Below, piece by piece: positions 5,714-40,884 of a stretch of DNA of 64,000 nt. This DNA is from Patescibacteria group bacterium (GTDB lineage: Bacteria > Patescibacteriota > Microgenomatia > CAYGWK01). The position numbers were made by a program, and so were the translations under genes. Position 1 is the first letter of the stretch; each line of letters begins with the position of its first letter. The stretch is taken from positions 25,416 to 89,415 of the forward strand of contig JBMORX010000010.1 of the NCBI GenBank assembly GCA_049322615.1, in the 5' to 3' direction. A model generated the notes under the pieces. It saw only the letters and a list, made by a program, of their open reading frames with translations. It was not told the DNA's origin and made no database searches.

Positions 5714-6783
5714 GGCGAATACTTTTTAAAATTCCATTTTTCTGGTTTTTTTATTCTTTTGGCTGGCCCAAGGTTTTGCCGGCCAACTATACATTCAGTC
5801 TGACTTTTAAATGCAATTCTCGCTGTCTAACCTGCAATATTTGGCAAAAGAGTGAAGAGGGGGAATTAACCCAGGCAGAATGGCAGAAAATCTTTTTGGC
5901 TTTGGGTAAATCGCCTTACTGGGTAACTCTTTCTGGAGGGGAGCCATTTTTAAGAAAAGATTTAATTGAAATTGTTAAAAATCTTTGCCAAATTTGTCAG
6001 CCAAAAATAATTACTATCCCCACCAATGGAATTTCAACTGCTAAAATCCAAAAAGATGTTCAGGCAATTTTAAAAGGTTGCCCCAAGACGCGTTTAATTA
6101 TCAACCTTTCTCTAGATGGAATCGGGGAAAAACATGATCAAATAAGGGGGGTTAAAGGTAATTTTGATAAAGCAATGGCAACTTATAAAAAACTGAAAAG
6201 GATAAAATCAAGAAATTTTGTCTTAGGAATTCATACCGTTATTTCAAGAGAGAATGTTAAAGACTTTTCTGAAATCTGCGATTTTGTTTTGGACCAACTT
6301 AAGCCTGATTCATATGTGACAGAAATCGCTGAACAAAGGGTTGAACTTGAGACAATGGGTAAAGATATTACTCCTAGTCTTGAAAATTATCAAAGGGCAG
6401 TAGATTATTTAGAGCAGAAGATGAGAAGGCAAAAATTAAAGGGCTTTTTCAAATTAACTCAAGCCTTTAGATTTACTTATTATGATTTAGTTAAAAAAAT
6501 CATGGAAAAAAAAGCCCAAGTTATTCCTTGCTATGCTGGGATACTTTCTTGCCAGATAGCCTCCAATGGCGATGTTTGGCAGTGTTGTGTTCGCGCCGAT
6601 GTTTTAGGCAATTTAAAAAAAGAAAATTTTGATTTTTCAAAGATTTGGTTTTCAAAAAAAGCTGATAAAATAAGAAAATCAATCAAAAATAGAGAGTGTT
6701 ACTGCCCATTGGCTAATGCTTCCTATACTAATGTTTTAATGAGCCCAACCTCAATGACTAAAGTTATCTTTAATTTTTTTTAA
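5710..6783 (+). CDS. Radical SAM / SPASM-domain protein (paralog of 990..2072)
   Basis: CNSRCLTC motif; LSGGEPFLRKDL; PTNG; GVKGNF; C-terminal Cys-rich CQIASNGDVWQCC...CYCP. Confidence 0.75.
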   Translation: MRRILFKIPFFWFFYSFGWPKVLPANYTFSLTFKCNSRCLTCNIWQKSEEGELTQAEWQKIFLALGKSPYWVTLSGGEPFLRKDLIEIVKNLCQICQPKIITIPTNGISTAKIQKDVQAILKGCPKTRLIINLSLDGIGEKHDQIRGVKGNFDKAMATYKKLKRIKSRNFVLGIHTVISRENVKDFSEICDFVLDQLKPDSYVTEIAEQRVELETMGKDITPSLENYQRAVDYLEQKMRRQKLKGFFKLTQAFRFTYYDLVKKIMEKKAQVIPCYAGILSCQIASNGDVWQCCVRADVLGNLKKENFDFSKIWFSKKADKIRKSIKNRECYCPLANASYTNVLMSPTSMTKVIFNFF

Positions 6784-7706
6784 TGAATGTCTTAATTACC
6801 GGCGGGACAGGCTTTATTGGTAAGCATCTAGTTGATGCTTTAGTCAAAAAAGGGCACCTGGTGAAGGTTATTGCCAGAAATCCCCAAAAAGCAGAGCCAG
6901 TGAAAAAGTTGGGGGTTAGGGTTGTGATTGGCGATTTAGGAAATAAAGAGTTTTTGAAAAAAGAGCTTGAGGGAATTGAAATTGTTTATCATTTAGCGGC
7001 TATTCCAGGCCAAGCCTGGGGCATTCCTTGGGAGGAATATAAAAAGGTGAATGTTGATTTTACCAAGAATTTGCTTAAAGCAGCCGTTCAAAATAAAATT
7101 GAAAAATTTATCTTCTGCAGTTCGGTTCAAGCTGTTGATCCCTCGACTTTTTATGGCAAATCAAAACTTGAGGCAGAAAAAGAAGTTAAAAAAAGCAATT
7201 TGGAATACGTTATTGTCAGGCCTGGCGTAGTTTATGGACCAGGTGATAAGCAGGCAATTTTGCGGATTTGTCAGCTAGTTAAGAAGGGATTTTTCCCTTT
7301 GATTGGCGGAGGGAAGACAAAATTAGCGATTATTTTTATTGATGATTTAATTGATCTTTTTTTGCAATGTCTTACTTCGAAGGTAAAAAATAAAACAATT
7401 TGGGGAATTGGTGAAGAGATTACTTATAAAAACTTAGTCAAAATAATAGGCAAGGAGTTGGGCAAGCCCTGTTGGCAGGTTTTTTTACCGGCGCCATTGG
7501 TAAAAACAGTCGCTTTTCCTTTGGAGGCGATTTCCTCAATCACTGGGATTCGACCTTTGGTTACCCGAGCCCAGGTTGATTTTGTTACTTTTGGTTGGTA
7601 TTTTGCTGTTCCCAAGGAACAAAAACGAATTTGGCAGCCGAAGGCAAAGTTTGCCGAAGAAATTAAAAAAACAATTGAGTGGTATAAAGAAAATGGCTAT
7701 CTATAA
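6783..7706 (+). CDS. NAD-dependent epimerase/dehydratase (SDR family)
   Basis: MNVLITGGTGFIGKHLVDAL Rossmann GxxGxxG; YGKSK catalytic motif. Confidence 0.8.
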   Translation: MNVLITGGTGFIGKHLVDALVKKGHLVKVIARNPQKAEPVKKLGVRVVIGDLGNKEFLKKELEGIEIVYHLAAIPGQAWGIPWEEYKKVNVDFTKNLLKAAVQNKIEKFIFCSSVQAVDPSTFYGKSKLEAEKEVKKSNLEYVIVRPGVVYGPGDKQAILRICQLVKKGFFPLIGGGKTKLAIIFIDDLIDLFLQCLTSKVKNKTIWGIGEEITYKNLVKIIGKELGKPCWQVFLPAPLVKTVAFPLEAISSITGIRPLVTRAQVDFVTFGWYFAVPKEQKRIWQPKAKFAEEIKKTIEWYKENGYL

Positions 7707-8092: not shown

Positions 8093-9467
8093 ATGAAAGT
8101 TTTATTGCTTCACCCCCAACTGAAAAAATATAAACAGCCCCGTCTTCCGCCTTTGGGACTTTTGTCAATTGCCGCCGTTTTGGAGAAAGAAGGACATCAG
8201 GTTTTTGTTTTGGATTTGAATGTTGAGCCTAATAACTTAGAAAGGTTTCTCAGAAAGAGATTTGATTTAGTTGGGATTACCGCAACCACTCCTTTAATCA
8301 AAGAAGCCTGGCGACTGACTAAGATTTGTAAGAGAAGAAAGTTGCCCGTAATTTTGGGCGGACCCCACCCTTCGGCTTTACCTGAAGAATCTTTAAAAAA
8401 GGGAATAGTTGATATTGTTGTTCGTCACGAGGGTGAGGAGACAATGAAAGAACTTTGTGCCAAATGGCCAAAATACCAAAAAATTGCGGGAATTTCTTAT
8501 ATTAAAAATGGGAAAGTTGTCCATAATCCTAATCGCCCCCTAATTCAAAACCTGGATAGTCTTCCTTTCCCTGCCCATCATCTTTTAGGCGATATTAGTC
8601 GCTATAGTCCCCCTCAACCTGTTTTAACTAAACAGAAAAAAACTTTGACCTTGATTTCTTCCCGCGGTTGTCCTTATCATTGTAATTACTGCTACAAGGG
8701 TGTTTTTGGCGATCGCTGGCGAGCCCACAGCCCGGAATATATTTTAAATCTTTGGGAATATTTGGTTAAGGAATTTGGGGTCGAAGAAATCGGAGTGGAA
8801 GACGATACTTTTAATCTAGACCCAAAAAGAGTCGAGGCAATTTGTGCTGGTTTGGGCAAAAGAAAAAATTAAAACTTCCTGGACCACCGCCCAGGGATTA
8901 AGGGCGGATAGAATCACCAAAGGCCTTTTAGTGAAAATGAAAAAAACTGGTTTTTATCGAACAGGCTTTGGGATTGAATCAGGCAGCCAAGAAATGGTTG
9001 ACAAAATCGGCAAAAATTTGAATTTAGCCAAGGTCCCCGAAGTCATTTCTTTCTGTAGAAACCTGGGGATAGAATCTATTGGTTATTTTATGATCGGTAA
9101 CGCTGGCGAAAACAAAAGGACGATGGAGGAAACGATTGATTACGCCATTAAGCTTGACCCAGATATTGCTCATTTTACTATTGCCACCCCCTTACCTGGT
9201 AGCCCCCTTTATGACCAGGTAAAAAAAGAAGGAAAACTGCTGATTACTGATTGGGATCTTTATGGTTATACCCAAGGCAGGTGTTATTTTGAGATGGGTG
9301 AGGTAAAAAAGGAGCTGGTGGAGAGGATGTGGCGAAAGGCTTATCGCCAATTCTACTTACGTCCTGCAGTGATTAAACGATTTTTAACCAGAAAAGAGAC
9401 GTGGCTTAACCTCCCCAAAATGGTTCAAGCTAGTCTTTCTTATCTGGGTATACGAAAGGAAACTTAA
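8093..9467 (+). pseudogene. B12-binding-domain radical SAM protein, split by a frameshift near 8840-8880 (two ORFs 8093..8872 and 8844..9467)
   Basis: N-terminal part has a B12-binding-like fold and SRGCPYHCNYC; the second ORF continues the homology (GFGIESGSQEM as in the two paralogs); the frameshift sits at the A-run gggcaaaagaaaaaatt. Confidence 0.6.
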
Positions 9468-10939
9468 TGGCGGATATCGTTTTAGTTCAACCAGTGGTGG
9501 GTCTTTTAGATAATATTAAGACGGCTCCTGGTTTGCCCCTCTCCCTTCTTTCGGCAGCTAAGTTGGTATCCAAGGAATTTAAGGTTAAGATTATTGACCA
9601 AAGGCTGGATTTTGCCTGGAGAGAAACCCTGAAAAAAGAATTGAAAAAGAAGCCTTTGTTGGTGGGGACAACGGCGATGCTTGGGCCGCAGGTTGAATTT
9701 GCCAGGATGGTTGGGGAGGAGGCAAAAAAGATAAATCCAGAAATCCCGGTAGTTTGGGGCGGACCCCATCCCTCTGTTTTGCCTGAGCAAACTCTTCAAG
9801 ATGAAACAGTGGATATCATTGTTGAGGGCGATGGGGAAGAGACGTTTTTAAAGCTGGCTCGGGGTTTGAAAAAAAAGAAATCTTTAAAAGCAATTCCTGG
9901 TCTTTATTTCAAAAAAGGAAACAAGGTGATTTACACCCGGCAGGCACCCCTAGTTGATTTAAATAAAATGCCGGATATTCCCTATGAGTTAGTTGATGTT
10001 TATCAATACTTGCCAAGAAGGGGAAAAGTGACGGCTTTGGATATGGAAACTTCTCGGGGTTGTCCTTATCGGTGTCGTTTTTGTTACAATCCCTTTTTTA
10101 ATCGCGGTCGCTGGCGGGCTTTAAAAGCGGAAATAGTTTTGGCAAGGATAAGGAAAATTGTTGAGAAATACAAAATTAAGGGGATTTGGTTTATTGATGA
10201 TGAATTTTTTATTGATCTTAAAAGAGCCAGAGAGATCATTGAGGGGTTGATAGAATTAAATCTTCACTGGACAATTCAGGGTGTAACTGCCAATTCGGTG
10301 CTAAGGATGGATGATAGTTTTTTGTCTTTGTTGGAGAAATCGGGTTGTGAACAATTAAATATTGGGGCTGAGTCAGGATCATTGCGGATTTTAAAAATGG
10401 TGGAAAAAGGCATTACTCCTCAAGATATTTTAAGGGTTAATCGCAAGCTTAAGCCCTACAAAATTATGCCCTGGTTTTATTTTATGATTGGCTTCCCTCA
10501 AGAAACGAAAACAGATGTTCACAAAACAATTAACCTCGTTCTTCGCTTACTTAAAGAAAACCCCAGGGCGAAAGTTTCCGGGATTGGCTGTTTTACTCCC
10601 TATCCGGGGACATCTCTTTTTGAGGAAGCGAAAAAAGAGGGTTTTGTGCCCCCCAAAGATCTTCTTGGTTGGCGGACTTTTTCGGTTGACCAAATTAATG
10701 TCCCTTGGTTAAAAGGGGAGAAAAAAGCAATGGTAGAAGCGGTTCAGTTCGCCTCCTTTTTTGTTGACGAAAAAGCCCGCGATGTGGCTTCTTCACTTTT
10801 GGTCAGACTGATTGCCGAGCTTTATCGACCCATCGCTCATTGGCGCCTAAAACGGAAGTTTTGGGGTTTACCTTTTGATGTTATGATTGGCAACCGGATT
10901 AAAAAAGAATTGGCTAAAAGGAGGATTTCCGTTTTTTAA
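9467..10939 (+). CDS. B12-binding-domain radical SAM protein (class B rSAM, methyltransferase-like)
   Basis: SRGCPYRCRFCYNP; N-terminal Rossmann-like B12-binding region; ATG overlaps the upstream stop (TAATG). Confidence 0.75.
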   Translation: MADIVLVQPVVGLLDNIKTAPGLPLSLLSAAKLVSKEFKVKIIDQRLDFAWRETLKKELKKKPLLVGTTAMLGPQVEFARMVGEEAKKINPEIPVVWGGPHPSVLPEQTLQDETVDIIVEGDGEETFLKLARGLKKKKSLKAIPGLYFKKGNKVIYTRQAPLVDLNKMPDIPYELVDVYQYLPRRGKVTALDMETSRGCPYRCRFCYNPFFNRGRWRALKAEIVLARIRKIVEKYKIKGIWFIDDEFFIDLKRAREIIEGLIELNLHWTIQGVTANSVLRMDDSFLSLLEKSGCEQLNIGAESGSLRILKMVEKGITPQDILRVNRKLKPYKIMPWFYFMIGFPQETKTDVHKTINLVLRLLKENPRAKVSGIGCFTPYPGTSLFEEAKKEGFVPPKDLLGWRTFSVDQINVPWLKGEKKAMVEAVQFASFFVDEKARDVASSLLVRLIAELYRPIAHWRLKRKFWGLPFDVMIGNRIKKELAKRRISVF

Positions 10940-10943
10940 AAAA

Positions 10944-12353
10944 ATGAAGTTCCTTTTTATTCAGAAAAGCGCTTTTCCTTTAGCTGGAGTGATGAGTCTT
11001 GGGGCGGTCATCAAAAAAACCGGCTGGCAAGTGGATCTAGTTTTAGCGGGAGAAGAGGATATTTTAAAAAAGGTTTGGGAGTTTCAGCCCCAGGTAGTGG
11101 CTTTTCCTGTTTTTACCGGTGAACATCAGTGGGTCCTTCGGCAGGCGCGGGTTTTAAAGAAAAAACATCCTCGTATTTTTATTCTTCTTGGTGGTTCCCA
11201 TCCCACTTATTATCCTGACATCGTTAAAGAAAAAGGAGTTGATGGCATTATTAGGGGAGAAGCCGAAGGAGCAGTTTTGGACTTATTGAAAGCTTTAGAA
11301 CAAAAAAAATCCTTAACTAAAATCAAGAATCTTTGGTTGAAGAAAGGAAAAAGGATTCATAAAAATCCCTTGCGTCCCCTGATTGAGGATTTGGATAGTT
11401 TGCCTGTTCCCTTAAGAGGAATTTATTATCAATATAATTTTTTAAAAAATGCCTCGGTCAAACAATTTTTAACCGGCAGGGGATGTCCTTATAATTGCAC
11501 TTTTTGCTCTAACCATCTTTTGCGCCAGATGTATCAGGGTAAGGGTAAATATCTTCGCCGACATTCTCCTTTAAGGGTTATTCAGGAGATAAAAGAAGTT
11601 TGGGAAAAATATGGCTTTAAGACAATTTCTTTTACTGACGATGTTTTTACTGTTGATAAAAATTGGTTAAAAGAATTTTTGCCTCTTTACCGAAAGAAGA
11701 TTGGGGTGCCTTTTATGGTGAATGTCACTGCCAACTCGTTGGATGAAGAATTAGCCAAGATGCTTAAAAAGGCTGGTTGTTACGGAATTGCCATGGGAAT
11801 TGAATCAGGAAGCCAAGAAATGAGGTTTAAAGTCCTTAAGAAATTTATCACCGATAAACAGATTTTTGAAGGAGGAAGATTGGCAAAAAAATACAATTTA
11901 GTTCTTAAGACCTACAATATTTTATCCTTGCCTGGCGAGACACTTCAAGATGCCATTAAGACGATTAAAATCAATGCTGCCCTTAAACCCTTATCAGCCA
12001 CGGCTTCCCTTCTTCAACCGTATCCAGATTACGAAATTACCCGCTACGCGGCCAGAAAAGGCTTTTTAGCGAAAAATTTTGGGATCGATGATGTCTTCGA
12101 AAGTATTTATCTGGCTTCCCCAATTAAGGGGAAAGAATCCCAAGAAATTGAAAACCTTCAGGCTTTTTTCCCTTTTTTGGTGGCCCATCCCAAATTTATT
12201 CCCCTCGTCAAACCATTGCTCAGGTTGCCATTCCGCTGGCTTTTTAGATTAGTGGCCAGAATTACTTACGGATTTTATATGAGCCGCGTCCATCGACTTT
12301 CTTTGCTAGATAAGATTCGATTCCTCCATCATATAGACCCTTTGAAGGTTTGA
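10944..12353 (+). CDS. B12-binding-domain radical SAM protein (third paralog)
   Basis: TGRGCPYNCTFCSNH; GIESGSQEM; start at MKFLFIQ just after the upstream stop. Confidence 0.75.
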   Translation: MKFLFIQKSAFPLAGVMSLGAVIKKTGWQVDLVLAGEEDILKKVWEFQPQVVAFPVFTGEHQWVLRQARVLKKKHPRIFILLGGSHPTYYPDIVKEKGVDGIIRGEAEGAVLDLLKALEQKKSLTKIKNLWLKKGKRIHKNPLRPLIEDLDSLPVPLRGIYYQYNFLKNASVKQFLTGRGCPYNCTFCSNHLLRQMYQGKGKYLRRHSPLRVIQEIKEVWEKYGFKTISFTDDVFTVDKNWLKEFLPLYRKKIGVPFMVNVTANSLDEELAKMLKKAGCYGIAMGIESGSQEMRFKVLKKFITDKQIFEGGRLAKKYNLVLKTYNILSLPGETLQDAIKTIKINAALKPLSATASLLQPYPDYEITRYAARKGFLAKNFGIDDVFESIYLASPIKGKESQEIENLQAFFPFLVAHPKFIPLVKPLLRLPFRWLFRLVARITYGFYMSRVHRLSLLDKIRFLHHIDPLKV

Positions 12354-13085: not shown

Positions 13086-13090
13086 TTAAT

Positions 13091-13182
13091 CATAGCAAGT
13101 GAAAAAGAAATTGTGAATGGTCAATTTTGAGTAGCATCATAGCAAGTGAAAAAGAAATTGTGAATGGTCAATTTTGAGTAGC
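13091..13182. repeat. Tandem direct repeat, 2 x about 46 bp (catagcaagtgaaaaagaaattgtgaatggtcaattttgagtagc)
   Basis: Two near-identical adjacent copies followed by the palindrome cctcgcaaggcgattccttgcgagg. Confidence 0.9.
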
Positions 13183-13976
13183 CTCGCAAGGCGATTCCTT
13201 GCGAGGCTAAAGGTCGTAATCGATTAAGGCAGTTTTGATTAAAGAAAAATCTTCTGTTTGTTTAACAAATGCTAGATAGTCTAATCGGGGATTCTTTTTA
13301 GAAAAATAAGAGAGTATTTCTTCTGGATGAACCCAGCTTGCTTGTCTTTGTCCTAAATATTCTGGCAACGAAGACGGTTGAGAAGTCCACCCACGAAAGG
13401 CATTGCCTTTTGAGGCTAATTCTTCAGGGTTGCGGTGAATATAACTAGTTAAATAAAGGAGTTGCTCTTCGGATTCAGCCATAACCGCTTTATATTGCGA
13501 TTGATACAGATGTCCAACGCGTTTATATTTTTTATTAAAAAACATGGTATATCTTGTCCCTAAAGAGTTCATAAATCTATCAATTGCATCTTTCGACTTT
13601 TGTTTTAAGAGAAAATGAAAATGGTTGGGCATTAAACAATAAGCGAGGAGAATTATTTCCCTCGAGAAGTTATTCAATCGCAAAAGTTTCAAAGCTTTGT
13701 CTTTCTCTTTGTAACTTGTTGATGGGCTAGAGAGTATTTCTCTAAGTTGCTTCTCGTTTTTGGGGAGGAGATATGTTTTAAGATATGAAAGAAAAACGGC
13801 ATAATCTTGTTCGTCAGAAAATATTTGGCGTTTTTCCACTCCCCGGTTATAAATATGATAGTAGCCATTTTCGATATATACTTTAAGAGCATTTTTAGCA
13901 GGCATAATTGCAGTCTTACACAAACGAAAGTATTTGTCAAGTTCACAAGGAGTTGCCTTGCGAGGCTAAAAGATCC
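13183..13976 (-). mobile_element. IS200/IS605-like (RAYT-like) HUH transposase element with flanking hairpins
   Basis: CDS 13207..13923 encodes YHIYNRGVEKRQIF and LMPNHFHFLL (HuH motif) plus a conserved Tyr region; a ccttgcgaggctaaa(g) motif flanks both ends (13191-13212 and 13953-13973). Confidence 0.65.
13207..13923 (-). CDS. IS200-like / REP-associated tyrosine transposase (Y1 HUH)
   Basis: HuH motif MPNHFHFLL; N-terminal YHIYNRG; 238 aa. Confidence 0.65.
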   Translation of the reverse strand: MCKTAIMPAKNALKVYIENGYYHIYNRGVEKRQIFSDEQDYAVFLSYLKTYLLPKNEKQLREILSSPSTSYKEKDKALKLLRLNNFSREIILLAYCLMPNHFHFLLKQKSKDAIDRFMNSLGTRYTMFFNKKYKRVGHLYQSQYKAVMAESEEQLLYLTSYIHRNPEELASKGNAFRGWTSQPSSLPEYLGQRQASWVHPEEILSYFSKKNPRLDYLAFVKQTEDFSLIKTALIDYDL

Positions 13977-22337: not shown

Positions 22338-22681
22338 ATCTTCGGTATGAGATAGAAGTTTTCGCCAAGCTTGCAACCACGGAAGCACAGAAGGTTGCAG
22401 AAGCACAGAAAGTGCCCCGCTTGGCGGGGCTTTTCAGTTTTACATACCTTGAAAAATGCACCTTAATAAGTGAATAGAAAATCTATTCACATCCTTGACA
22501 ACCGCGCTCAGCGCGGTTTAAGCCGAGCTCAGCTCGGCAATCAAGATGTGACAGGAAACGAACAAAAGTTCGATTTCTTGCCCGCCTAAATTTTCGCACT
22601 CGGCCTTTCAGTACTATTCGTACACGCCTCGTGCCAAAATTTTTGGCGGACTGCAAAAATTGAACTTCGTTCAATTTTTTT

Positions 22682-22724
<43 letters not shown>

Positions 22725-23478
22725 TAGGCATGCAAGTCGATCGGTCGTTCGTGTCTCACTTTCGTTCGACACTTACTCCCTCAATAGCAAATATTAAATA
22801 GTAAAAATCAAAAATACATAGTAAACATTAAAAATATTTAAATTTTGATATGTATATTTACTATTTAATTTTTAATATTTAATTTTGAGCGAGTGGTGAG
22901 CGGGAGCGAGACACGAGCGATAGAGGCAGACGGGTGAGTAATGCGTACCAACCTACCTCCAAGTGAAGCATAGCCATTCGAAAGGATGGGTAATACTGCA
23001 TACGGTGGGTGGAGTTCTAAGGGTAGAAATGAAAAATGAAAATAGAAAAAATAAGCAAGCTTGTTGCTAGCGCAATAAAAATGACAATTAAAAATTTTAA
23101 AATTTTACATTGTAATTTTTCATTTTTATTTTTTAGTTTTTAATTTTATCAGTTTATTTAGCAACTTTTACTTTTAGATCTCCATCCATCAAAGAGAGTA
23201 ACTTCTCGCTCGGAGATGGGGGTGCGTCCTATCAGCTTGTTGGTGGGGTAAAAGCCTACCAAGGCGATGACGGGTAGCTGGACTGAGAGGTCGGTCAGCC
23301 ACAAGGGGACTGAGAGACGGCCCCTACACCTACGGGTGGCAGCAACTAGGAATCGTTCGCAATGGGGGAAACCCTGACGACGCGACGCCGCGTGGAGGAT
23401 GAAGGCCTTCGGGTTGTAAACTCCTTAATCCCGAACGATAGCGAGGGAGGATTAAGCACCCACTAACTACGTGCCAGC

Positions 23479-23721
23479 CACGTACAATTTTTGCGATGGC
23501 TGGTGGCGCGTAGTCTAAATCCGACTATATGCTGGGAACTCTTTTGATGTCCGCAAACAGTGTTGTGGTTTTTATGACCCGCGTCAAAAGACAATCAGCA
23601 GGCAACCCGACGTTCAGTTTACATAAACGTGGGAAGTCCTCAGAGACTATACGTCGGATTCCGATAGAATCGGGAAAGATATAGTCCAAATGTTACGTAG
23701 CAAAAATGTTACGTGGCCAGC
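23479..23721 (+). mobile_element. Group I intron (no ORF) at the 16S 515-region
   Basis: Splits GTGCCAGC|..|AGTTGCGGTAA; contains the P7-type core cagagactatacgtcgg...gatatagtcc. Confidence 0.6.
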
Positions 23722-24548
23722 AGTTGCGGTAAGACGTAGGGTGCAAGCGTTATCCGGATTTATTGGGCGTAAGGCGTTTCGTAGGCGGTCCGATGAGTCC
23801 CGACTTAAATACCCCGACTCAATCGGGGAAGTGGTTGGGATACTATCGGACTTGAGGTTTTTGGGAGGTGCTGGAATTCGCGGTGAAGCAGTGAAATGCG
23901 TTGATATCGCGAGGAACACCAAGGGCGAAGGCAAACACCTAAAAAACATCCCGTAAATTGCCTTCGGCAATAACGGGACTCCCGTAAAGAGCAATCTTTA
24001 TGGGAATTCTGTATGCCAAAAGAATTGAGGGAACCCCGTTAGTCTTGAGCGTAAGCGAAAGACTTTACGGGGCCTGACGCTGAGGAACGAAAGCTAGGGG
24101 AGCGAAAGGGATTAGAGACCCCTGTAGTCCTAGCCGTAAACTATGCTCGCTAGATGCCCGGCTTGTGCTTCGCACAAGTTTCCGAATTAATCCGAATGCT
24201 TGGTTTTGGTTTAAAATTTATTCGGATAAATTCGGATGAAGAACTTGACCTAGAAGATCAGTCTCAACATCCGAATAAATCCAAATAAGAAAAGCAAACA
24301 AACACATTAGGATTAAATTCGGATATCTCGTGCGGAGCACGAGCTAGGTGTCGTAAGCTAACGCGTTAAGCGAGCCGCCTGGGAAGTACGGCCGCAAGGC
24401 TAAAACTTAAAGGAATTGACGGGGAGCTGCACAACCAGGGGAGCGTGTGGTTTAATTCGAGACGAAACGAAGGACCTTACCTGGGTTTGACATGCCGACG
24501 TTCTAGTCCGATGAAAATCGGACAAGTCCGCAAGGAGGTCGGCACAGC

Positions 24549-24579
<31 letters not shown>

Positions 24580-25015
24580 GGGTGTTGGCTTCAGTGCCAT
24601 AACGAGCGCAACCCCTATTGTCTGTTAAATTTTCAGACGAAACCGCCCCGCCTATTTTGTCGCGGTTGTTAACACTATTTATTCTTGAGTTACAACCTGA
24701 ATTTAGTTAATAATGGCGGCGCAAGGGCGAATAGCCCTGCCCTATTCGGGCACAGCGCCGCGATTGGAATCAACGGCGGCAAATATGGCGGGGAGGAAGG
24801 AGGGGACGACGTCAAGTCAGCACGGCGCTTATGTCCAGGGCAACACACACACTACAATGGACAAAAACAGCGAGTTGCAAGCACGTAAGTGTAAGCTAAT
24901 CTCGGAAATTTGTCCTCAGTTCAGATTGTGGGCTGCAACTCGCCCACATGAAGATGGACTTGGTAGTAATCGCGGGTCAGCAAACCGCGGTGAATACGTT
25001 CTCAGCTCTTGTACA

Positions 25016-26053
25016 AAAATTGCGCCTACCGGTTTGGTTTTCCATTCCGTTGAAATCGGAACCAAAAAGAATAATTTTTGGAAGCGAAATAACATCCTCC
25101 GATGGTGACATCGAAGCGAGAAGGGTTAAAGTAGCATTTTCTAGCTTGCAGTCGAGACGGTCCCGCCTATTTGATGACCTTTCGTACAAATAGGGAAATC
25201 ACTTATTCTAATTTTGCCTTTAAAAATAAGCAAAATAGGCGGGATATTTGGGCTCGAGATGGAAAAGAAAGGAAAACCAAATTACGTAGGGAGATCTGCC
25301 ATTGACCCACCAAAAAATTGCAGCATGAGCCGCAGTTGAAATCAACTAAGGCGAATGCTAAAATTTAGGCGGGTAGTTGTCGGTGTGAACTAACAACGTA
25401 AATGGTAGAAGTCTGCAGAGTGCGTAGTACCCCGCCGAAGCGCACCACGAGCCGTGTATGAATAATACTGAAAAGGCGAGTGGCAAGCGAATGGCTGGGG
25501 GAAGGCACGTAAACTATCCAAATGGGCGCATACAAAATCATCAGTCCTTGGTATATCGTTGGTTTTACCGAGGGAGAAGGTTGTTTTGCCATAATTCTTT
25601 CGAGACATAAAACAAAGAAGGCTAAAAGGGATGCCGGACTTTGTTTTGAAATTGAGCTTCGGGGGGACGACAAACCAATCCTTGAAAGAATTCAAAAGAG
25701 GCTGGGGTGTGGTCAAATTATTGATCTTGAGTACGAGCGTTATGGTTGGAAACCCCATGTGAAGTATGTCGTTAGAAAGCAAAAAGATCTTTTCTTTAAG
25801 GTGATTCCTTTTTTCAAACAGTTTCCGCTACAAGGCAAAAAACAAAAAGATTTTGAGCTTTTTTGCCAAGCCGCGGAAATTATAAAAAATAGGGAACACT
25901 TAAAAGATGATGGAATCAAAAAACTTGAAAAAATCAGGGAATTTATGAATGAGCGCCGACCGATGTTTGGATAGTCATTCGCGAGGGTGCGGGAAAACCG
26001 CGTGCCCCGTGAGAATAGAAAATATTTTGAGCAATCAGATATTTATCTATGAA
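25016..26053 (+). mobile_element. Intron at the 16S 1391-type site carrying a LAGLIDADG HEG
   Basis: Exon junction cttgtaca|cactgcccgtca reconstitutes CTTGTACACAC(C/T)GCCCGTCA. Confidence 0.65.
25522..25974 (+). CDS. LAGLIDADG homing endonuclease (single-motif, 150 aa)
   Basis: WYIVGFTEGEGCFAI motif; inside a 16S intron. Confidence 0.8.
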   Translation: MGAYKIISPWYIVGFTEGEGCFAIILSRHKTKKAKRDAGLCFEIELRGDDKPILERIQKRLGCGQIIDLEYERYGWKPHVKYVVRKQKDLFFKVIPFFKQFPLQGKKQKDFELFCQAAEIIKNREHLKDDGIKKLEKIREFMNERRPMFG

Positions 26054-26144
26054 CACTGCCCGTCAGATGAACAAAGTCAGGGGCACTTGAAGTCCCGATT
26101 TAATCGAGATTAAAGTGAACTTGGCGATGAGCATCAAGTCGTAA

Positions 26145-26920
26145 AAAAGTTGCGACTCCCGACGGTAACGTCGGGAAAAAATCTGGCTATATCGGGGAAG
26201 CCTAAATCTGCTAAAATTAAATTAGGGATATGGTAACCGCGAGGGAACCTCGATTTAATCGGGGACTCCGTAGAGACTATACGCCAGTTCCTGTCAGAAA
26301 ATGACGAAAGCATATTTGCTGGGAGCACTCCATGATGCTACCGAGCGAAAAACCACCTATCGCATTGCTCAAAAGAGCAAATCGTATATTGAATTTCTAG
26401 CCGAAGGGATTAGATCCTTGGGCCGAAAAGCCTGGATGTACAAGGAAGGAAAATCAAGAAATCTTTATGTAGTTGAATTTTCTAAATCCTTATTAAAAAA
26501 TACTAAAATTTCCTCTCGGCAAGAAAAAATTGACTATGTGCGTGGCTATTTTGATGCGGAGGGTGGAATTGCTCGAGATCCGAAAGTGAATTATTATTTG
26601 TATTTTGCTCAGAAAAATTTGGGAGATTTACAAAAAACTAAACATTTTTTGGAAGAATTAGGCATCAGTTGTGGAAGAATTCATAACCCAAGCAAAAGGG
26701 CGGATCCAGATTACTGGCGATTCTTTATAAGAGCAAAATCTTATGAAGATTTTGCCAGAATAATTGGTTCGGATCATCCAGAAAAAAGTCATTTTCTGAG
26801 AGGATAAAGAGATAGTCCATGCCTCTGGAAACAGAAGGAAGAACCCCGAATAATTTTACCGTTCGCCGGAGTATCATTCGAACTGCGGCTCACGGAGCAA
26901 TTCAACGGGGTGAACATGAA
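26145..26920 (+). mobile_element. Group I intron at the 16S 1506-type site carrying a LAGLIDADG HEG
   Basis: Splits GAAGTCGTAA|CAAGGTA; P7-type strands gtagagactatacgcc (26272) and agatagtcc (26812). Confidence 0.6.
26301..26807 (+). CDS. LAGLIDADG homing endonuclease (168 aa)
   Basis: RGYFDAEGGIA motif; second motif region LLGALHDATE; inside a 16S intron. Confidence 0.7.
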   Translation: MTKAYLLGALHDATERKTTYRIAQKSKSYIEFLAEGIRSLGRKAWMYKEGKSRNLYVVEFSKSLLKNTKISSRQEKIDYVRGYFDAEGGIARDPKVNYYLYFAQKNLGDLQKTKHFLEELGISCGRIHNPSKRADPDYWRFFIRAKSYEDFARIIGSDHPEKSHFLRG

Positions 26921-27156
26921 CAAGGTATCCCTACTGGAAGGTGGGGATGGATCACCTCCTTTCTAAGGAGTAATTCGGAGCGATTAAGCAACTAAGCAAT
27001 TGAGCTATTGAGTTTTTCTTAATAGCTTAGTAGCTGAATAGCTTAATAGCTAAAATACACCCGAGAAGGCGAACTCGTTAAAATCGCCAAATTTCCTGTC
27101 ACGTAAGAACGTTGATTTTGCTCTGCAAAATCTTACGTTCAACGTGACTAGGGACG

Positions 27157-31458: not shown

Positions 31459-33116
31459 GCACCTTAACAATTGAAGAGAACCGCATTTATTCTAATTCAT
31501 GGCCTAATTTTTATTAAAGCAAATGGTGGATGCCTTGGTGGCAAGAGCCGAGGAAGGACGCGGCAGGTGGCGATACTCGTCGGGGAGAAACCTAGCATTC
31601 TTTGATCCGGCGGTTTCCGAATGGGGCAACCCGGCGCAGTGAAAACTGCGTCAAGCGCTGTTTCACTGCGATATTAAATAGTAAATAGTAAAAATCAAAA
31701 ATACATATTAAAATTCAAAAAGATTTTTCTCTTTAAAATTTTACTATCTATATTTACTATTTAATTTTTAATATTTGATATCGCTGCGAAGCAGCGTTGG
31801 GGAACCACCCGAACTGAAACATCTAAGTAGGGTGAGGAAAAGATAGAGCTTGTGCTTCGCACAAGTTTCCGAATGAATCCGAATGCTTTTCATTGGTCTA
31901 AAATCTATTCGGATAAATTCGGATGAAGAACTTGACTTGAAAGTTAGTTTCAACATCCGAATAAATCCGAATAAACAAAATCAAGAAAGCGTATTAGGAC
32001 TAAATTCGGATACTCGCGCGAAGCGCGAGCAGATTCCGCAAGTAGCGGTGAGCGAAAGCGGAAAAGCCTAAACTCGTGCGGAGCACGAGTTCGCTGAACT
32101 ACGCTGATTCATACGCTGAACTACGCTGAAACCTAATTTTCTTCTGCGTTAATCCGCGTCTTGATCTGCGTTTATCGGCGATCTCATGCTTCGCATGAGA
32201 GTTGGAGGACTCCAACGTGGGAGTGTCGAGGGTAGTCGAAGGACATGGAATTGTCCACCAGAGAAAGTGAAAGTCTTGTAGACGAAACCTGAAACACCCC
32301 TAGGAGCACCTAAGTACCATGGGGCAAATACCCTGTGAGAATCTGGCCGAACCATCGGCTAAGGCTAAATACTCTTGCTGACCGATAGTGTACCAGTACC
32401 GTGAGGGAAAGGTGAAAAGAAGGGTTTAAAACCTAGTGAAATAGAACCTGAAACCGTTTGCTTTCAAACAGATAGAGGCCCGGGAGTGAATTCTGTTTAC
32501 AATCTTCAGCGATTTTCAGCGTTTTGTTCAGCGTCAATCAGCGCTAATCGCTGATAAACGCGGATAACTACGCGGATTAACGCTGAAATAATTGTAGATA
32601 GTACTCACTTCCGAGCTAATATCGTGCCTATTGAAGAATGAACCGGCGAGTAACTATGTGTTGCGTTTTGGTTAATCCCATTTAAATGGGAGAAGCCGTA
32701 GCGAAAGCGAGTCTTAATAGGGCGTTAAGTAGCACATAATTGACCCGAAACCGGGCGAGCTAACCATGGGCAGGGTGAACCCGCCTAAATCGGCGAGGGG
32801 AGGCCCGAACCCGTTGCTGTTGCAATAGCATGGGATGACCGGTGGTTAGAGGTAATATGCCAAACGAGCCCGGAGATAGCTGGTTCTCCCCGAAATATAT
32901 ATAGGTATAGCCTTAATTTTAACTCCTCCTGAGGTAGAGCACTGGATGGTCTCGGCAGCGCAAGCTGTCGTGATCAACCAAACTCCGAATTCGGGGGCGA
33001 GAAATTGAGGAGTCAGAACGACCGGGCTAAGCTGGTCGCTCGAGAGGGAAACAACCCAGACTTTCGTCTAAGGTCTCAAAACTTTGGCTTAAGTGGAAAA
33101 GGAAGTATTTACCCTA

Positions 33117-33153
<37 letters not shown>

Positions 33154-34125
33154 AAAAGAAAGCGTAACAGCTCACTGGAAGACCCGTCTCGACTCAGTCG
33201 AGCCGAGGCGGATTGGGTGGGTGCGCCGAAAATTTACCGAGGCTAAAAGCCAATACCGAAGACAAAGGTTTCGTGCAGAGCACTGCTCTGCGCGAGGCAG
33301 TAGGGGAGCGTCCCGATAGCAGTGAAGTCCTTCCGCAAGGTCAGGATGGAGCTGTCGGGAGTGAGAATGCCGGTATGAGTAGCGAAAGTCCGATAAGAAT
33401 TCGGACCGCCGAAAACCCGAGGTTTCCCCCGCAATGTTCGTCAGCGGGGGGTTAGTCGGTCCTAAGCCAAGTCCCCGATTTAATCGGGGAGTAGGCGATG
33501 GAGGAGCCGTTTATATTCGGCTACAGGAAAGAAATCATTTTTAGTCGGGGATTGACAGAAATGGAAGAGCCAAGTCTCGAAATGACACGGGATTTAAGTT
33601 ATAAGGCAGTTCCGATAGGAAAATCCATCGGAACGTTTTAACCGAGTAACAAATAAGAGTCCAACCCGCAAGGGAAGGGCAATTTGGTAAGCTTTCAATT
33701 CTTGAAAAAAGATTCGCGACGAACCCGAATAGTCTTACCATTCGCCTTAGTACATTTGTACTGCGGCTTATGGAGCGACTTAACGGGTCTAGGATTTCTT
33801 TTTTACCGTACCGCAAACCGACACAGGTGGGTTGGACCAGAAGTCTAAGGCGAGCGGGAGAAGGAAGTTTGAGGAACTCGGCAAAAAATCTGGGCGTAAG
33901 CTATGCAAGATGCCCTCCCCCACACCAAATTTTGGTGTGGGGGTGCAACAAAAGATTGTTTGGCGACTGTTTAACTAAAACACAGGCCTCTGCAAAGGGT
34001 AATACCCAAGGTATAGGGGCTGAAGCCTGCCCAGTGCCGGAAGGTTATGGGGACTTGTCCTTCGGACATTTGCCCGGAGGGCGAGAAACTTAAGCCCCGG
34101 TGAACGGCAGCAGTAACTATAAACG

Positions 34126-34538
34126 AAAGTATTGTAGTTATAAAACTTGGCTATATGCTGGAAAGTCCGTCCTGAAAAAAGAATAGCATGCAGTGGTACC
34201 CTTGATACCGTGATGTTGTACTATTGTAATAGTACAGTGAAACAAAAGGCGATATAAAGGGTAAAAATCCACCTGCTGCGGACAATCAGCAGGAAAGACC
34301 AAGAAATATCAAATATAAAATATCAAAAAGTAAATATACAGATTAAAAATAAAATATTTTAATTTTGCTTTGTATTTTTGATATTTAATCTTTAATTTTT
34401 GATTTTCTTCGGAATCCTCAGAGACTATACGCCAAGGTCGCCGAATTGGCGACATGAGATAGTCCGACCTCCCAAGAGATTGGGAGAGCCGTAAACAATC
34501 GGTCTTAGGGACGTCAAACGTCCCGAGTAACAAAGTGA
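34126..34538 (+). mobile_element. Group I intron (no ORF) at the 23S 1917-type site
   Basis: Splits GTAACTATAAACG|..|GGTAGCGAAGTCCCTCGTCGGGTAAGTTCCGACC; P7 core cagagactatacgcc...gagatagtccgacc resembles the Tetrahymena CAGACUAAAUGUCGG...AUAUAGUCGGACC. Confidence 0.6.
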
Positions 34539-35137
34539 ACTGTTCGATGGTAGCGAAGTCCCTCGTCGGGTAAGTTCCGACCCGCACGAAAGGCTAAACG
34601 ACCAAACAACTGTCTTGAACTTTCACCCGGCGAAATTGAAATGGCTGTGAAGATGCGGCCTACATGCTCTTGGACAAAAAGACCCCGTGGAGCTTTACTA
34701 TAGCTTGGCATTGGGTTGGGTTTTGAAATTGTCTAGCGTAGGAGGGAGCTTGTGCGTAGCACAAGCACGCGGATAAACGCTGATTTTGACGCCGATTGAC
34801 GCTGATTTTTTTTCAGCGTTCTTCAGCGTTTTATTCAGCGTAATTCAGCGTGCTCGCGCTGCGCGCGAGCATTAATGTAACACCTCTCTTTTCAAGACTT
34901 CAATTCTTACCTATGGGCTTTGCAAACAAGCTCGGGAAAAGTGTCAGGTGGGTAGTTTGACTGGGGAAGTCGCTTGCTAAAAGGTAACGCGAGCGCACAA
35001 AGGTCGGCTTAGTCCGGATGGAAATCGGACCGAACGTGCAAAGGCGAAAGCCGGCTTGACAGTGAGACCGACAGGTCGAACTGGTGCGAAAGCAGGTCTT
35101 AGTGATCCCCCGCCTGTTCGTGGGAACGGCGGGGCTT

Positions 35138-35174
<37 letters not shown>

Positions 35175-35217
35175 GGACCCGAGAGTCCATATCGACGGTC
35201 CGGTTTGGCACCTCGAT

Positions 35218-36126
35218 AAACAAGAGTCGATTGTCGAGGTTAAACTCAGCTCATAACGGTGAAATCCTTATCATTTTAGAACCCAGCTTGAGAATGTTAA
35301 AATAAATGAGAGGACAATACCGTGGGAAGTTATTGGGAAAACAAAAACTTACAGAGACGATGGGTTCTTCTTAAGAAAGGCTTGCGATTGACACAAAAGC
35401 AGAGATCAGTGTTAATTGGTTCCTTACTTGGAGATGGAACATTGAGACGTGGCATAAGAGCAATCAATGTTAATTTTAAAGTTGAACACGGTTTGCGTCA
35501 GAAAGAATATGTTTTCTGGAAGTATCTGGTTTTCAGAAATTGGGTATTTACTGAACCTAAATTGAGTTACAGATATAGAGATAATGGGAAGAGATATTTA
35601 AAATCTTGGTGGTTTAGGACAGTTCGGCACCCTGTTTTAACCAAGTATTGGAAGCATTTTTACTCTGGCAGGAAAAAGATTATTCCAGATTTAATCGACA
35701 AACTGTTTGATTCATTGGTTTTGGCTGTTTGGGTCATGGATGACGGGTGTTATCAACACGGAAGAATTGATATTAGCACCTATGCTTTTACACTTAAAGA
35801 AATCCATCGTTTACAGGATGCATTAAGGACGGTGTTTGCTCTTGAATCTCACTATTTCAAGGATAGAGAAAAAGGTTATCGGATATATTTCTCTGTTTCG
35901 GAGACAAAGAAAGTTATAAATTTTATTCGTCCTTATATAATTCCTTCAATGCAGTATAAAATTGGTTTATCCCAACAACCCCGTAACGACTGATCCCTGA
36001 AGTATGCGCGCAAGTGCTTAATTTTGGGGTGAGATGGAAAGAATTCTTTCTTCCATCACACGCTGAGTCCTGGACTGTTTGGCCCAGGAAAGGTATAGTC
36101 TACACCATTAGTAATATTGGATTTTG
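35218..36126 (+). mobile_element. Intron with a LAGLIDADG HEG in 23S domain V (after GGCACCTCGAT)
   Basis: Exon CACCTCGAT|..|GTCGGCTCATCGCATCC. Confidence 0.65.
35322..35993 (+). CDS. LAGLIDADG homing endonuclease (double-motif, 223 aa), GTG start
   Basis: LIGSLLGDGTL and LAVWVMDDGCY motifs; RBS gagagga. Confidence 0.8.
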   Translation: MGSYWENKNLQRRWVLLKKGLRLTQKQRSVLIGSLLGDGTLRRGIRAINVNFKVEHGLRQKEYVFWKYLVFRNWVFTEPKLSYRYRDNGKRYLKSWWFRTVRHPVLTKYWKHFYSGRKKIIPDLIDKLFDSLVLAVWVMDDGCYQHGRIDISTYAFTLKEIHRLQDALRTVFALESHYFKDREKGYRIYFSVSETKKVINFIRPYIIPSMQYKIGLSQQPRND

Positions 36127-36723
36127 TGGTCGGCTCATCGCATCCTCCCGCTGAAGTAGGCGGGAAGGGTTGGACTGTTCGTCCATTAAAGCGGTACGTG
36201 AGCTGGGTTCAGAACGTCGTAAGACAGTTCGGACTCTATCCAGAGCATGCGTTGATTTCTGAGGGGAGCTCTCCTTAGTACGAGAGGACTAGGAGGGAGG
36301 AATCCCTGGTGTGTCGGCTGTTCCGTCAGGAGCATCGTCGAGTAGCCACATTCCTAGTGGATAACCGCTGAAAGCATCTCAAGTGGGAAGCCCACCCCAA
36401 GATTAGAAATCGTTAAAGACCCGTCGAAGATGACGACGTTTCCCCCTTCGCTGCTTTGCAGCTTCGGGGGGACCCCGCGTAGCTCGCAAGAGCGAAGTGG
36501 GGGATAGGCTGGAGGTTAAAGGGCAGTAATGCCTTAAGCTTACCAGTACTAATCGGTCAAAAGAATTAGGCCATGAACTAGAATAAATGAAGAGGCGTAA
36601 AAGTTTTTGCGCTTAAGCCTTTCGGTCTCCGGAGCGGACTGGAGCCACTCCTTCCCATTCCGAACAGGATAGTGAAACAGTCCAGCGACCCGTAAAATTT
36701 GCGCAATTTAAGATTTCAAAGTA

Positions 36724-36842
36724 TAATAAATATGCTTCGGTGATAAGAGCGCCGTCGAACTACTCCTTTCCATTCCGAACAGGATAGTAAAAGGCGGCAG
36801 CGGGGACGATAGTTAGACCTTGTGTTTAGCGAAAATACCTCA
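36724..36842 (+). rRNA. rrf: 5S rRNA (119 nt)
   Basis: Helix I GCTTCGG..CCGAAGC; loop C region CCATTCCGAACAGGATAGTAAAAG; followed by a T-run. Confidence 0.65.
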
Positions 36843-37187
36843 TTGCCGAAGCTTTTTTATTGCGCAAATTAACGGGTCAGGGACGTTACGAAGCTTTACG
36901 TCCCGCTGACGATAGTTCCCCGTCTAACGGGGGCGAAAATAGGTCGAGGCCGGAGGACTTGAGCGCAAAAACTTATCCCGTTGAACCGCGTGGTCACGCG
37001 GCATGGGACTTTGCGCGGCGCTTCAAAGACGTTATTCCGCTTACAGGGATATTGTTTTCCTCCCCCAAAAGGGGTAAAATTAAAAAAATCCTAAAAAGAA
37101 AGAAGGTTGAGATGGGTGGGAAAAACAAAAGTATCACAAGAAGCAAAAGTATCACGAGTATCACGGGCTAAAAAAGAACCCCAGACA

Positions 37188-39779: not shown

Positions 39780-40884
39780 CTTTTGGGACCACAAAATCCA
39801 GCACAAAATCCAGGACTATCCTGGGTTGTCTCTGTAAACAATCGAATCACCATCGAATGACTACTGAATTACTACAGAATCACCTTCTTATTTAGAATTG
39901 TCAACCTTTTCCTCAATTTATCCACAAAATCCTAAAACTTCTAAAAATTAGTCAAAATTGAAGCTATTTCCCTGGAGAATTTTCTTATAAGACATAGCAT
40001 TTTTACTCATCTTTTTCTTATAGGATTGACAAACTTGACAACCTGTGATATATTTGGAAGTGTATGAGCAAGAGATTTTTGGGAAACTTCTTAAAAAGAA
40101 GAATCAAGGTAAAATTACCTAATTTAGGTAATGGAAAAACCATTCTAGGTCTTTGGGGAAGCGAGCAAATTAAAAAATTAGGGAGTCTGGGGCAGGATTT
40201 GGTAATAATGAGAATGTCCGCCTAATCTTACTTCTCGCCTTACCCCGTCTGACGGGGTGCGGCTCGAAGAGCGATTATCGGCGGATAAAGGATGAAGGTA
40301 GTAAGTAATTAGTAATTAGTAATTGGTAATTTGGATTAGTTCATTGAAATTTTTCGCGTTAATCAGCGCGCGACACAAGTAGACACTTAAGGTAATCAGA
40401 GGTTTGCGTGTCGCGTAATCTGCGTTAATCCAGGCCTATCAGCGGGGAAAGAGTTCCAGAATGAACAAAAGAGCATTGCTATCGCTGGTTTGATAGAGTC
40501 TTACCACGAGTAGCAATGCTCTTCGAACGGTTTTCAAGTTTGGACAGGAAACTTGTAAAACCGTATTGACAATAGCATATCCTAACAAGTCTGTCAAGGG
40601 GTAAACCAGAATAATATTCGGTTTACCCCGCAGACCCCGCGTATAGTGCGGCGTTGCCGCAACGCGGCTTTACGCCGTTAAAATCGCGCCATGAGTCGCG
40701 CTACGAATAGTAGATAAGACGAATGGCAAGATTATACGGGGTCAAGTGGATAAGTTGGTTGACTTTAATTTTGTTCGACCCTAGAGATGGCGGGTGGTAT
40801 GTAGGGCAGGCGTACCACCTGCCTTTTGTGGGGTCGAAAATTGTTTTACGTGCCAGGCGTACTCTGTTTTCATAATTTTGGGTC

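Follow-up and report, generated by a model that had tools for sequence, protein, structure and literature searches.

A structured insertion present in the 16S as well as the 23S rRNA gene of a Patescibacteria group bacterium and its relation to clamp-bearing insertions in other rRNA operons

How does one and the same structured sequence come to lie in two different ribosomal RNA (rRNA) genes of a single genome? This question is raised by a 64,000-nucleotide stretch of contig JBMORX010000010.1 (GenBank assembly GCA_049322615.1; hereafter the window, meaning the whole stretch of DNA that was analysed) from a Patescibacteria group bacterium, which belongs to the Candidate Phyla Radiation (CPR). 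Both its 16S and its 23S rRNA gene carry an insertion of about 185 bp built from CCGAAT/ATTCGG units, for which an original prediction, made from the letters of the DNA, had proposed horizontal mobility. Our analysis leads us to regard it as probable that both insertions are copies of a single element and that this element belongs to a large non-coding family, here called clamped rods, that occurs in rRNA operons only, resembles the rRNA intervening sequences (IVSs) of other bacteria and is copied between sites.

In CPR bacteria, the genes for rRNA are rich in insertions. A mechanism is at hand for the class of introns with homing endonucleases, and the short class devoid of open reading frames (ORFs) has been left uncharacterised. 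Short, ORF-less, non-intron insertions in CPR rRNA genes are listed in the literature as uncharacterised and are presumed to be IVSs (PMC11270868).

One element at two sites of the rRNA operon

Both copies lie where they had been predicted (Table 1), the 16S copy ending at 24344. Overall, the two are 84-89% identical. They align in blastn with 85.4% identity over 185 nt (E = 2e-54); mean column identity, flanks included, is 88%, and the interiors are 84% identical in the comparison of within-operon pairs taken up below. In the Rfam alignment each copy forms an unaligned block within the respective rRNA model, with correct rRNA flanks on either side. The four CCGAAT/ATTCGG inverted-repeat arms that had been described were found in both copies, and the window holds no other cluster of these hexamers; blastn of the 64-kb window returned no third copy of the CCGAAT-type element. 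For the 23S copy, the nearest sequence is the 16S copy of the same genome.

Since metagenomic assembly struggles with rRNA operons, and since contigs from relatives are interrupted there, one might suspect a chimera or misjoin that duplicated a single repeat into both genes. We consider this hardly credible. The two copies differ at about 25 positions (about 16%), and these differences are confined to loops or to changes that preserve pairing: among 61 predicted pairs compared, three show compensatory changes on both sides, four are changed on one side and kept through a G.U pair, and none is broken. In addition, both copies are bordered by the right rRNA flanks, and the same phenomenon is seen in independent assemblies.

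Compared with its own reverse complement the element is 67-71% identical; it forms an imperfect palindrome from end to end, and folding predicts one imperfect rod as a coaxial continuation of the host helix. The minimum free energy (MFE) is -82.4 kcal/mol for the 16S copy and -81.1 kcal/mol for the 23S copy, compared with about -42 for shuffled sequences (z = -9.1 and -9.3, respectively), and none of 200 shuffles was equally stable. The original prediction had seen GC-rich hairpins with tetraloops at both boundaries. Hairpins with stems of 7 bp can indeed be drawn there, with loops of 3 nt (CTTGTGC-TTC-GCACAAG) and not UUCG-type tetraloops, and folding did not uphold them as separate structures: the two terminal modules are mutually complementary and constitute the halves of a 17-bp basal clamp, CTTGTGCnnnGCACAAG with CTCGYGCn'n'n'GCRCGAG. 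In the window copies the 3' module reads CTCGYGC-GRA-GCRCGAG, and 15 of the 17 positions of the 5' module agree with the reverse-complemented 3' module, which makes the modules terminal inverted repeats. Above the clamp, the interior of the rod is fast-evolving, AT-rich and composed of short periodic units, in the window copies ATCCGAAT/ATTCGGAT units at a spacing of about 10 nt. A fold into two or four separate hairpins was rejected, as both the MFE and the compensatory unit changes in a full-length metagenomic homologue (L067) favour the single rod: in L067, TACGAAT is matched by ATTCGTA and TGCGAAT by ATTCGCA, connecting arms 1 with 4 and 2 with 3, which argues for the rod over two side-by-side hairpins.

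Covariance models detected no group I or group II ribozyme core in the element, the window's group I intron lying solely at 23474-23703. Likewise, no Rfam family reached its gathering score for the element, and the hits at E<=10 were generic hairpins of plant microRNA precursors far below threshold.

A family of clamp-bearing insertions and its sites

The clamp motif CTYGYNCNNNGNRCRAG has seven matches in the window, compared with 0.03 expected from shuffles, and all seven bound rRNA insertions. Two further family members stand in the 23S rRNA gene (Table 1), and the 5' module of the one at 32073-32199 is the same as the 3' module of the 16S copy. We scanned metagenomes with the pattern CTTGTNCNNNGNACAAG-N{120,150}-CTCGNNCNNNGNNCGAG, which fixes many clamp positions and covers one size class. 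The scan yielded at least 129 clamp elements at no fewer than 120 loci (L064-L183), compared with a few matches to be expected by chance according to a rough estimate. What follows refers to the 129 elements among the matches listed (the listed elements). The controls, 2.9 million viral contigs and 63 other loci, contained 0 matches to the clamp pattern, and no clamp elements were found in 450 kb of other CPR DNA.

In BLAST against the window rRNA, 122 of the 129 listed elements proved to be bordered, on one side or on both, by 16S or 23S sequence at a distance of up to 600 nt and in the same orientation. Rfam puts four more in rRNA operons, three abutting the 23S 5' end at 0-3 nt and one between the 23S and 5S genes; the remaining three sit at contig ends and are not placeable. 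Among the matches listed, no interpretable element lies outside an rRNA operon and none is antisense. Two apparent antisense matches were dismissed, being in fact the 3' module of one sense element together with the 5' module of the next. The listed elements occupy about 17 sites in helix tips, leaders, trailers and spacers; Rfam locates some of them 23 nt beyond the 3' end of 16S, others at that of 23S or in the 23S-5S spacer. The commonest sites are 23S helices H45 (38 elements), H25 (22) and H63 (16), 16S h6 (14) and the 23S H98 region (7). IVSs are usually located in 23S helices 9, 25 or 45; together, H25 and H45 account for 60 of the 129 listed elements, and the window copies lie in 16S h26 and 23S domain I. 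Sense orientation at a helix tip or in a leader, trailer or spacer implies that the element is transcribed within the pre-rRNA.

Family members are 120-185 nt long and share the consensus clamp 5' CUUGUGC-nnn-GCACAAG with 3' CUCGYGC-n'n'n'-GCRCGAG, a pseudo-dyad-symmetric duplex of 17 bp with fixed U.G and A.C positions, beyond which mostly about 10 further bp follow. Covariation was assessed on 78 distinct listed elements and on an alignment of 77 sequences of element ends. The loop triplets, which the scan pattern leaves free, are fully complementary in 72 of the 78 elements, compared with a mean of 23 and a maximum of 37 for shuffled partners. In the 77 sequences the 27-bp long-range stem is 89.5% paired, 15 of its pairs are changed on both sides, and its covariation score of 0.424 compares with 0.126 for shuffled data (0 of 500 as high) and with 0.04-0.12 if the partner is displaced by 1-3 columns. 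This covariation supports the clamp duplex. Pairs 3, 5 and 9 of the duplex are U.G and pairs 13 and 15 are A.C, of which pairs 3 and 15 are fixed by the pattern; at pair 13, where the 3' side is free in the pattern, A.C accounts for 77% and A-U for 23%. One element, L141_573, keeps the long-range pairs while both of its local hairpins are broken. Folds of the sense RNA exceed those of the antisense RNA in stability by a mean of 10.2 kcal/mol (sense more stable in 94 of 102 listed elements, p = 3e-16), with about 7.5 G.U pairs per element, and this bias bears the mark of selection acting on the RNA.

These findings bear directly on whether the element is a derivative of a generic DNA transposon, such as a miniature inverted-repeat transposable element (MITE), a repetitive extragenic palindromic (REP) element or an IS200/IS605-type derivative, that was mobilised in trans, for instance by the Y1 transposase encoded at 13207-13923 of the window, and reached rRNA genes by chance. 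The clamp modules could be read as imperfect terminal inverted repeats that each form a hairpin, as at IS200/IS605 ends; a Y1_Tnp ORF is present in the window and another in a relative; and strand-specific transposition of single-stranded DNA could give a uniform orientation. Nevertheless, we judge this origin very unlikely. The original prediction had itself named copies scattered through non-rRNA DNA as a generic MITE as the finding that would speak against it, and no clamp-bearing element was found outside rRNA operons among the matches listed, in the 450 kb of other CPR DNA or in the window. The flanks are devoid of a target-site duplication or a conserved target tetranucleotide, another repeat, CCTTGCGAGGCTAAA, borders the Y1 gene, and complementarity between the clamp loops is not a trait of transposase-end hairpins. 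A link between the Y1 transposase and the clamp element was consequently rejected, as these flanking repeats differ from the clamp. Elements derived from MITE, REP or IS200/IS605 sequences are likewise short, non-coding and multicopy, with terminal inverted repeats or hairpins and a long-hairpin fold. The clamp family differs from them in that, in the data searched, it has no target-site duplication, dispersed copies or matching autonomous element, and in its confinement to the sense strand of pre-rRNA and its RNA-type covariation with G.U pairs. Two side observations concern the Y1 gene: a 46-nt tandem duplication at 13087-13180 adjoins its ORF, and the relative L054 also encodes a Y1 transposase (6936-7622).

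The transposon reading could also draw on hairpins with CCGAAT units but no clamp that are dispersed in other CPR genomes. A scan of a genome collection with the interior pattern ATCCGAATN{15,45}ATTCGGATNNATTCGG, in which the window and the rRNA copies are not among the matches, found 53 loci (ATCCGAAT ... ATTCGGATNNATTCGG) in named genomes (L001-L053), compared with about 2 expected by our own estimate; viral contigs gave 0 matches. The hosts are mostly CPR, namely Levyi-, Curtiss-, Roizman-, Collier-, Woese- and Saccharibacteria and others. These hairpins are arrays of 8-mer units (ATCCGAAT, ACGAAT, TCCTAAT) at a spacing of 10-11 nt followed by inverted units (for example L005 1864-1927, L012 804-867 and L022 7409-7474), and they mostly occupy intergenic gaps, in one Levyibacteriota genome on up to seven contigs. 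None of the 53 lies in an rRNA gene, and we rejected them as copies of the element because none aligns with it over its full length. They look like a dispersed REP-like family that shares the unit of the window element's interior. Hence, the interior building block is also dispersed in CPR genomes, and the clamp-bearing element is specific to rRNA operons.

Gain, copying and possible excision of the insertions

Relatives of the window organism were found through homologues of the S1 gene, which adjoins the 5S rRNA gene; their S1 identity to the window is 70% for L056 and 63% for L057 and L058. The 23S rRNA genes of L057 and L058 are free of any of these insertions, and that of L056 is free of the three 5'-proximal ones. 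Where the window has the 23S copy, each of the three relatives shows a loop of 10-11 nt, for example GGAAAAGAAAACAAAACCAATTCCGCAAG, and because this short loop is present in all three, the 23S copy represents a gain in the window lineage. Helix 26 of the L056 16S rRNA does carry a clamp element, CTTGTCCGTAGGACAAG ... CTCGCCCTGCGGGCGAG, with an interior that differs from that of the window (GAAATTC/GGATTTC units). The elements of L056 in helix 26 (399-548) and in helix 78 (5783-5894) have a common interior type, GAAATTCGAAG..., and a common C-variant clamp. L056, the closest relative with rRNA sequence, is therefore a second case in which the 16S and 23S genes of one organism share an element type. 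In a more distant relative, an ORF for 23S_rRNA_IVP (PF05635, bAvd-like) lies just upstream of S1 (L061 92-463), presumably within a 23S IVS.

Similarity between sites of the same operon recurs in the wider family. Interiors from different loci have a median identity of 59%, with just 0.3-3% of pairs above 80%; by comparison, seven of the 13 within-operon pairs at different sites (listed elements plus window) reach at least 78%. The best pairs are those of L178 (99%, H25 and a site near nt 1500) and L064 (94%, H63 and domain V), followed by L141 (89%), L091 (88%) and the window (84%). The window pair is thus an instance of a general behaviour and the clearest case in the sample that spans the 16S and 23S genes. 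Full-length homologues of the window element, with the same four arms and the same apex, occur at two further sites, in the 23S-5S spacer of L067 and in 23S H45 of L137, so that one element type is found at four pre-rRNA sites in at least three organisms.

Could independent clamp elements of the 16S and 23S genes have come to resemble each other solely through homogenisation, by gene conversion via their clamps? Modules have evidently been shuffled: the two copies of L064 combine 94% identical interiors with clamps that differ by a four-position G/C swap, which points to recombination between elements; in the window, the element at 32073 carries as its 5' module the 3' module of the 16S copy; and the h26 and H78 elements of L056 share a type of their own. 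As the whole explanation, we regard such concerted evolution as a tentative and rather doubtful proposal, for the empty 23S site of all three relatives calls for an insertion in the window lineage in any case. It complements copying between sites and does not exclude it. Some of the similarity is probably owed to gene conversion between elements with shared clamps, and the insertion at the 23S site is still needed.

The same observations have to be set against the view that the rods are retained expansion segments, which grew in place and persist as long helices on the surface of the mature ribosome. Expansion segments of eukaryotic and Asgard archaeal rRNAs are long helical extensions at the tips of helices such as h26, H25, H63 and H98 that are retained, vertically inherited and tied to a fixed helix. 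In keeping with such a nature, the helix-tip sites of the clamp elements are all surface loops that tolerate expansion (for example h26, H25, H45, H63, H78, H98), and the rods are stable. We nevertheless consider this origin quite unlikely. Unrelated 16S and 23S sites share a sequence, and relatives are without the 23S copy, both of which indicate insertion and not growth in place. Unlike expansion segments, the clamp elements are copied between helices and also reside in leaders, trailers and spacers, all of which are discarded in maturation; moreover, CPR rRNA insertions are reported to be removed from the transcripts (PMC11270868). The empty 23S site, the L067 and L137 homologues and the similar pairs in four other operons all support the original prediction that a mobile structured insertion, and not vertical expansion of a helix, is at work.

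The closest counterparts are the 23S IVSs of Salmonella, Leptospira, Coxiella, Campylobacter and alpha-proteobacteria (PMC4990558). They, too, put an extended stem-loop in place of the terminal loop of a surface helix, have complementary termini that form a basal stem, are sporadic among relatives and contain no ribozyme, and their classical sites, H25 and H45 (PMC4990558), are the commonest sites of the clamp family among the matches listed. In Coxiella, inverted repeats form a terminal stem that RNase III cleaves in its middle, and the retained stem may keep the rRNA fragments together (PMC4990558). The clamp family is unlike these IVSs in being a single sequence family with a conserved 17-bp clamp at about 17 sites, including 16S helices, leaders, trailers and spacers, and in having several copies per operon that are near-identical across sites and carry an interior of periodic units; its members in the scanned size class are ORF-less. 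Similarly close are the "insertion sequences" of CPR rRNA genes described by Tsurumaki et al. (2024; PMC11270868), which come from the same organisms, are short (<200 bp), ORF-less and non-intron, occur in 16S and 23S genes, and in part lie at the IVS sites 23IS2 and 23IS4. That report, which follows Brown et al. (2015), does not describe shared termini, structure, sharing across sites or between 16S and 23S, or specificity for orientation and operon (PMC11270868). In the literature searched and in Rfam we found no account of the clamp, its covariation, the multi-site sharing between 16S and 23S, or the operon and orientation specificity. The family falls within the known kind "rRNA intervening sequence", of which it is a new and well-defined representative.

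These likenesses lend themselves to a model for the fate of the elements. Following transcription within the pre-rRNA, a double-strand-specific endoribonuclease, most likely RNase III, would cut in or just above the clamp and free the rod, and the remaining part of the clamp would keep both rRNA pieces together. A dimeric double-strand RNase could plausibly act on a GC-rich, pseudo-symmetric duplex of 17-27 bp. Among the rRNA sites of one genome, elements would be copied or exchanged at the DNA level, and the 23S copy of the window would be a lineage-specific copy of the element now also found at 16S helix 26. Clamp elements abut mature 23S ends (the 5' end at 0-3 nt, or the 3' end) at L097 532-714, L111 322-484, L138 557-720, L109 ~2573 and L064 ~3001. 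Their position suggests that cleavage at the clamp can also set those ends, and such elements may have been co-opted as end-processing sites.

Several points weigh against this interpretation. Excision, fragmentation and the nuclease are steps that we infer, in bacterial 23S IVSs the cut by RNase III within the stem being the precedent for the clamp family. No RNase III gene motif occurs in the 64-kb window, a result that is uninformative for the whole genome. Taken by itself, each clamp module forms a local palindrome that is close to perfect (99% paired), and local covariation links positions 5 and 13 of the 3' module, so that the long-range duplex may not be the sole relevant fold; the modules may adopt a second local fold or present a dyad-symmetric recognition surface. 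For the 16S copy of the window the antisense fold is the more stable one, and for the 23S copy both are equal. Conservation at the clamp positions fixed by the scan pattern is partly built in, since the pattern itself fixed them, and the metagenomic loci are CPR-like by their multi-insertion rRNA genes. Finally, the flanks of both window copies and of 85 tabulated elements show no target-site duplication, and the left flanks of the tabulated elements show no conserved target motif or tetranucleotide.

An alternative that we rate as unlikely treats the clamp as a sequence-specific signal for the processing and mobility of an unrecognised, rRNA-restricted selfish element, the rods of which would be cut out at the dyad-symmetric clamp and re-enter other exposed helix tips of the pre-rRNA. 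Re-entry would occur at the level of RNA, through ligation and then reverse transcription and recombination, or would depend on a clamp-specific enzyme. This would explain the sense-only placement in pre-rRNA of all 129 listed elements, and some of the copies abutting mature 23S ends would then have been co-opted as end-processing sites.

With an IVS-like family as the favoured interpretation, a large share of the short ORF-less insertions of CPR rRNA genes forms one family with a recognisable signature and a structure backed by covariation. It opens testable questions on how IVS-type elements spread, on an enzyme that recognises the clamp, and on the fragmentation of CPR rRNA at multiple positions. 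The clamp motif also allows the automatic finding and masking of insertions that confound primers for CPR 16S and 23S genes, classifiers and rRNA annotation.

The host operon and other features of the window

Table 1. Location of the clamp elements, the rRNA genes with their other insertions, and the Y1 transposase gene in the 64,000-nt window
Feature	Position	Strand	Remarks
Y1 (IS200/RAYT-like) transposase ORF, Y1_Tnp	13207-13923	-	CCTTGCGAGGCTAAA on both flanks; hairpin at 13183-13205
16S rRNA gene	22676..26965	+	True 3' end GGATCACCTCCTTTCT at 26965
Group I intron in 16S	23474-23703		Rfam
Clamped-rod insertion, CCGAAT type (16S copy)	24161..24344	+	Terminal loop of 16S helix 26; 175-nt block at small-subunit model ~832
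5' clamp module CTTGTGC-TTC-GCACAAG, 16S copy	24162..24178	+	Motif match; pairs with 3' module
3' clamp module CTCGTGC-GGA-GCACGAG, 16S copy	24327..24343	+	Loop GGA complementary to 5' loop TTC, with one G.U pair
16S insertion of ~1.9 kb with two LAGLIDADG ORFs (25522-25974, 26301-26807)	25016-26918		After ~E. coli position 1396
23S rRNA gene	31503..36600	+	3' end approximate; at least 8 insertions
Second element copy (23S copy)	31848..32030	+	23S domain I; 186-nt block at large-subunit model ~224-232; replaces 10-11-nt loop kept in relatives
5' clamp module, 23S copy	31849..31865	+	Identical to 5' module of 16S copy
3' clamp module CTCGCGC-GAA-GCGCGAG, 23S copy	32013..32029	+	Differences from 16S copy keep pairing
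Third family member, variant clamp CTCGTGCGGAGCACGAG ... CTCATGCTTCGCATGAG, CGCTGA-unit interior	32073..32199	+	23S, large-subunit model ~283; absent from L056 and L057
418-nt 23S insertion	34123-34537		Classical 1917-type intron site; no intron recognised by Rfam
Fourth family member, canonical clamp CTTGTGCGTAGCACAAG ... CTCGCGCTGCGCGCGAG, CGCTGA/TCAGCG-unit interior	34749..34869	+	23S helix 78 region; absent from L057 and L058
23S insertion with LAGLIDADG_2 ORF (35322-35993)	35218-36128		
5S rRNA gene	36736-36851		Rfam

This is a typical operon of CPR/Patescibacteria, and the S1 protein of the window is identical to an NCBI protein that bears the label "Patescibacteria group bacterium". Rfam's 16S end at 25051 is an artefact of alignment, and six insertions, the group I intron among them, fall within 22676-25051 of this gene. 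The full 5S rRNA gene is preceded, about 50 nt upstream, by a partial 5S copy (model positions 14-66) at 36634-36686.

Other repeated sequences also occur in these rRNA genes. A second, AT-rich palindromic core of about 100 nt, 80-82% identical between its copies, is found at 22780-22895 in the 16S helix 6 insertion, at 31676-31779 in a 23S domain I insertion and at 34305-34406 in the 418-nt 23S insertion (~E. coli 1917); it is present in part in another 16S insertion (23087-23147), and a similar sequence lies in non-rRNA DNA of a Levyibacteriota genome (L011 2568-2670). Intergenic, hairpin-like stretches of CAGCG / ACGCGGA units at 40355-40440 and 44625-44700 resemble the interiors of certain 23S insertions (32092-32180, 32484-32610 and 34766-34852) and may be dispersed counterparts of a second interior type. 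Helix H45 of the window, at 33271-33296, reads TTCGTGC-AGAGCACTGCTCT-GCGCGAG and resembles a clamp of which just the outer halves are present, with a minimal hairpin between them. The idea of a "solo clamp" footprint at this position was set aside, as the helix has its native length in relatives, and the similarity may be due to chance.

Elsewhere in the window, a cluster of B12-binding radical SAM genes lies at 8093-12353, and two very large ORFs occupy the minus strand at 47531-53386 (1951 aa) and 53948-63904 (3318 aa).

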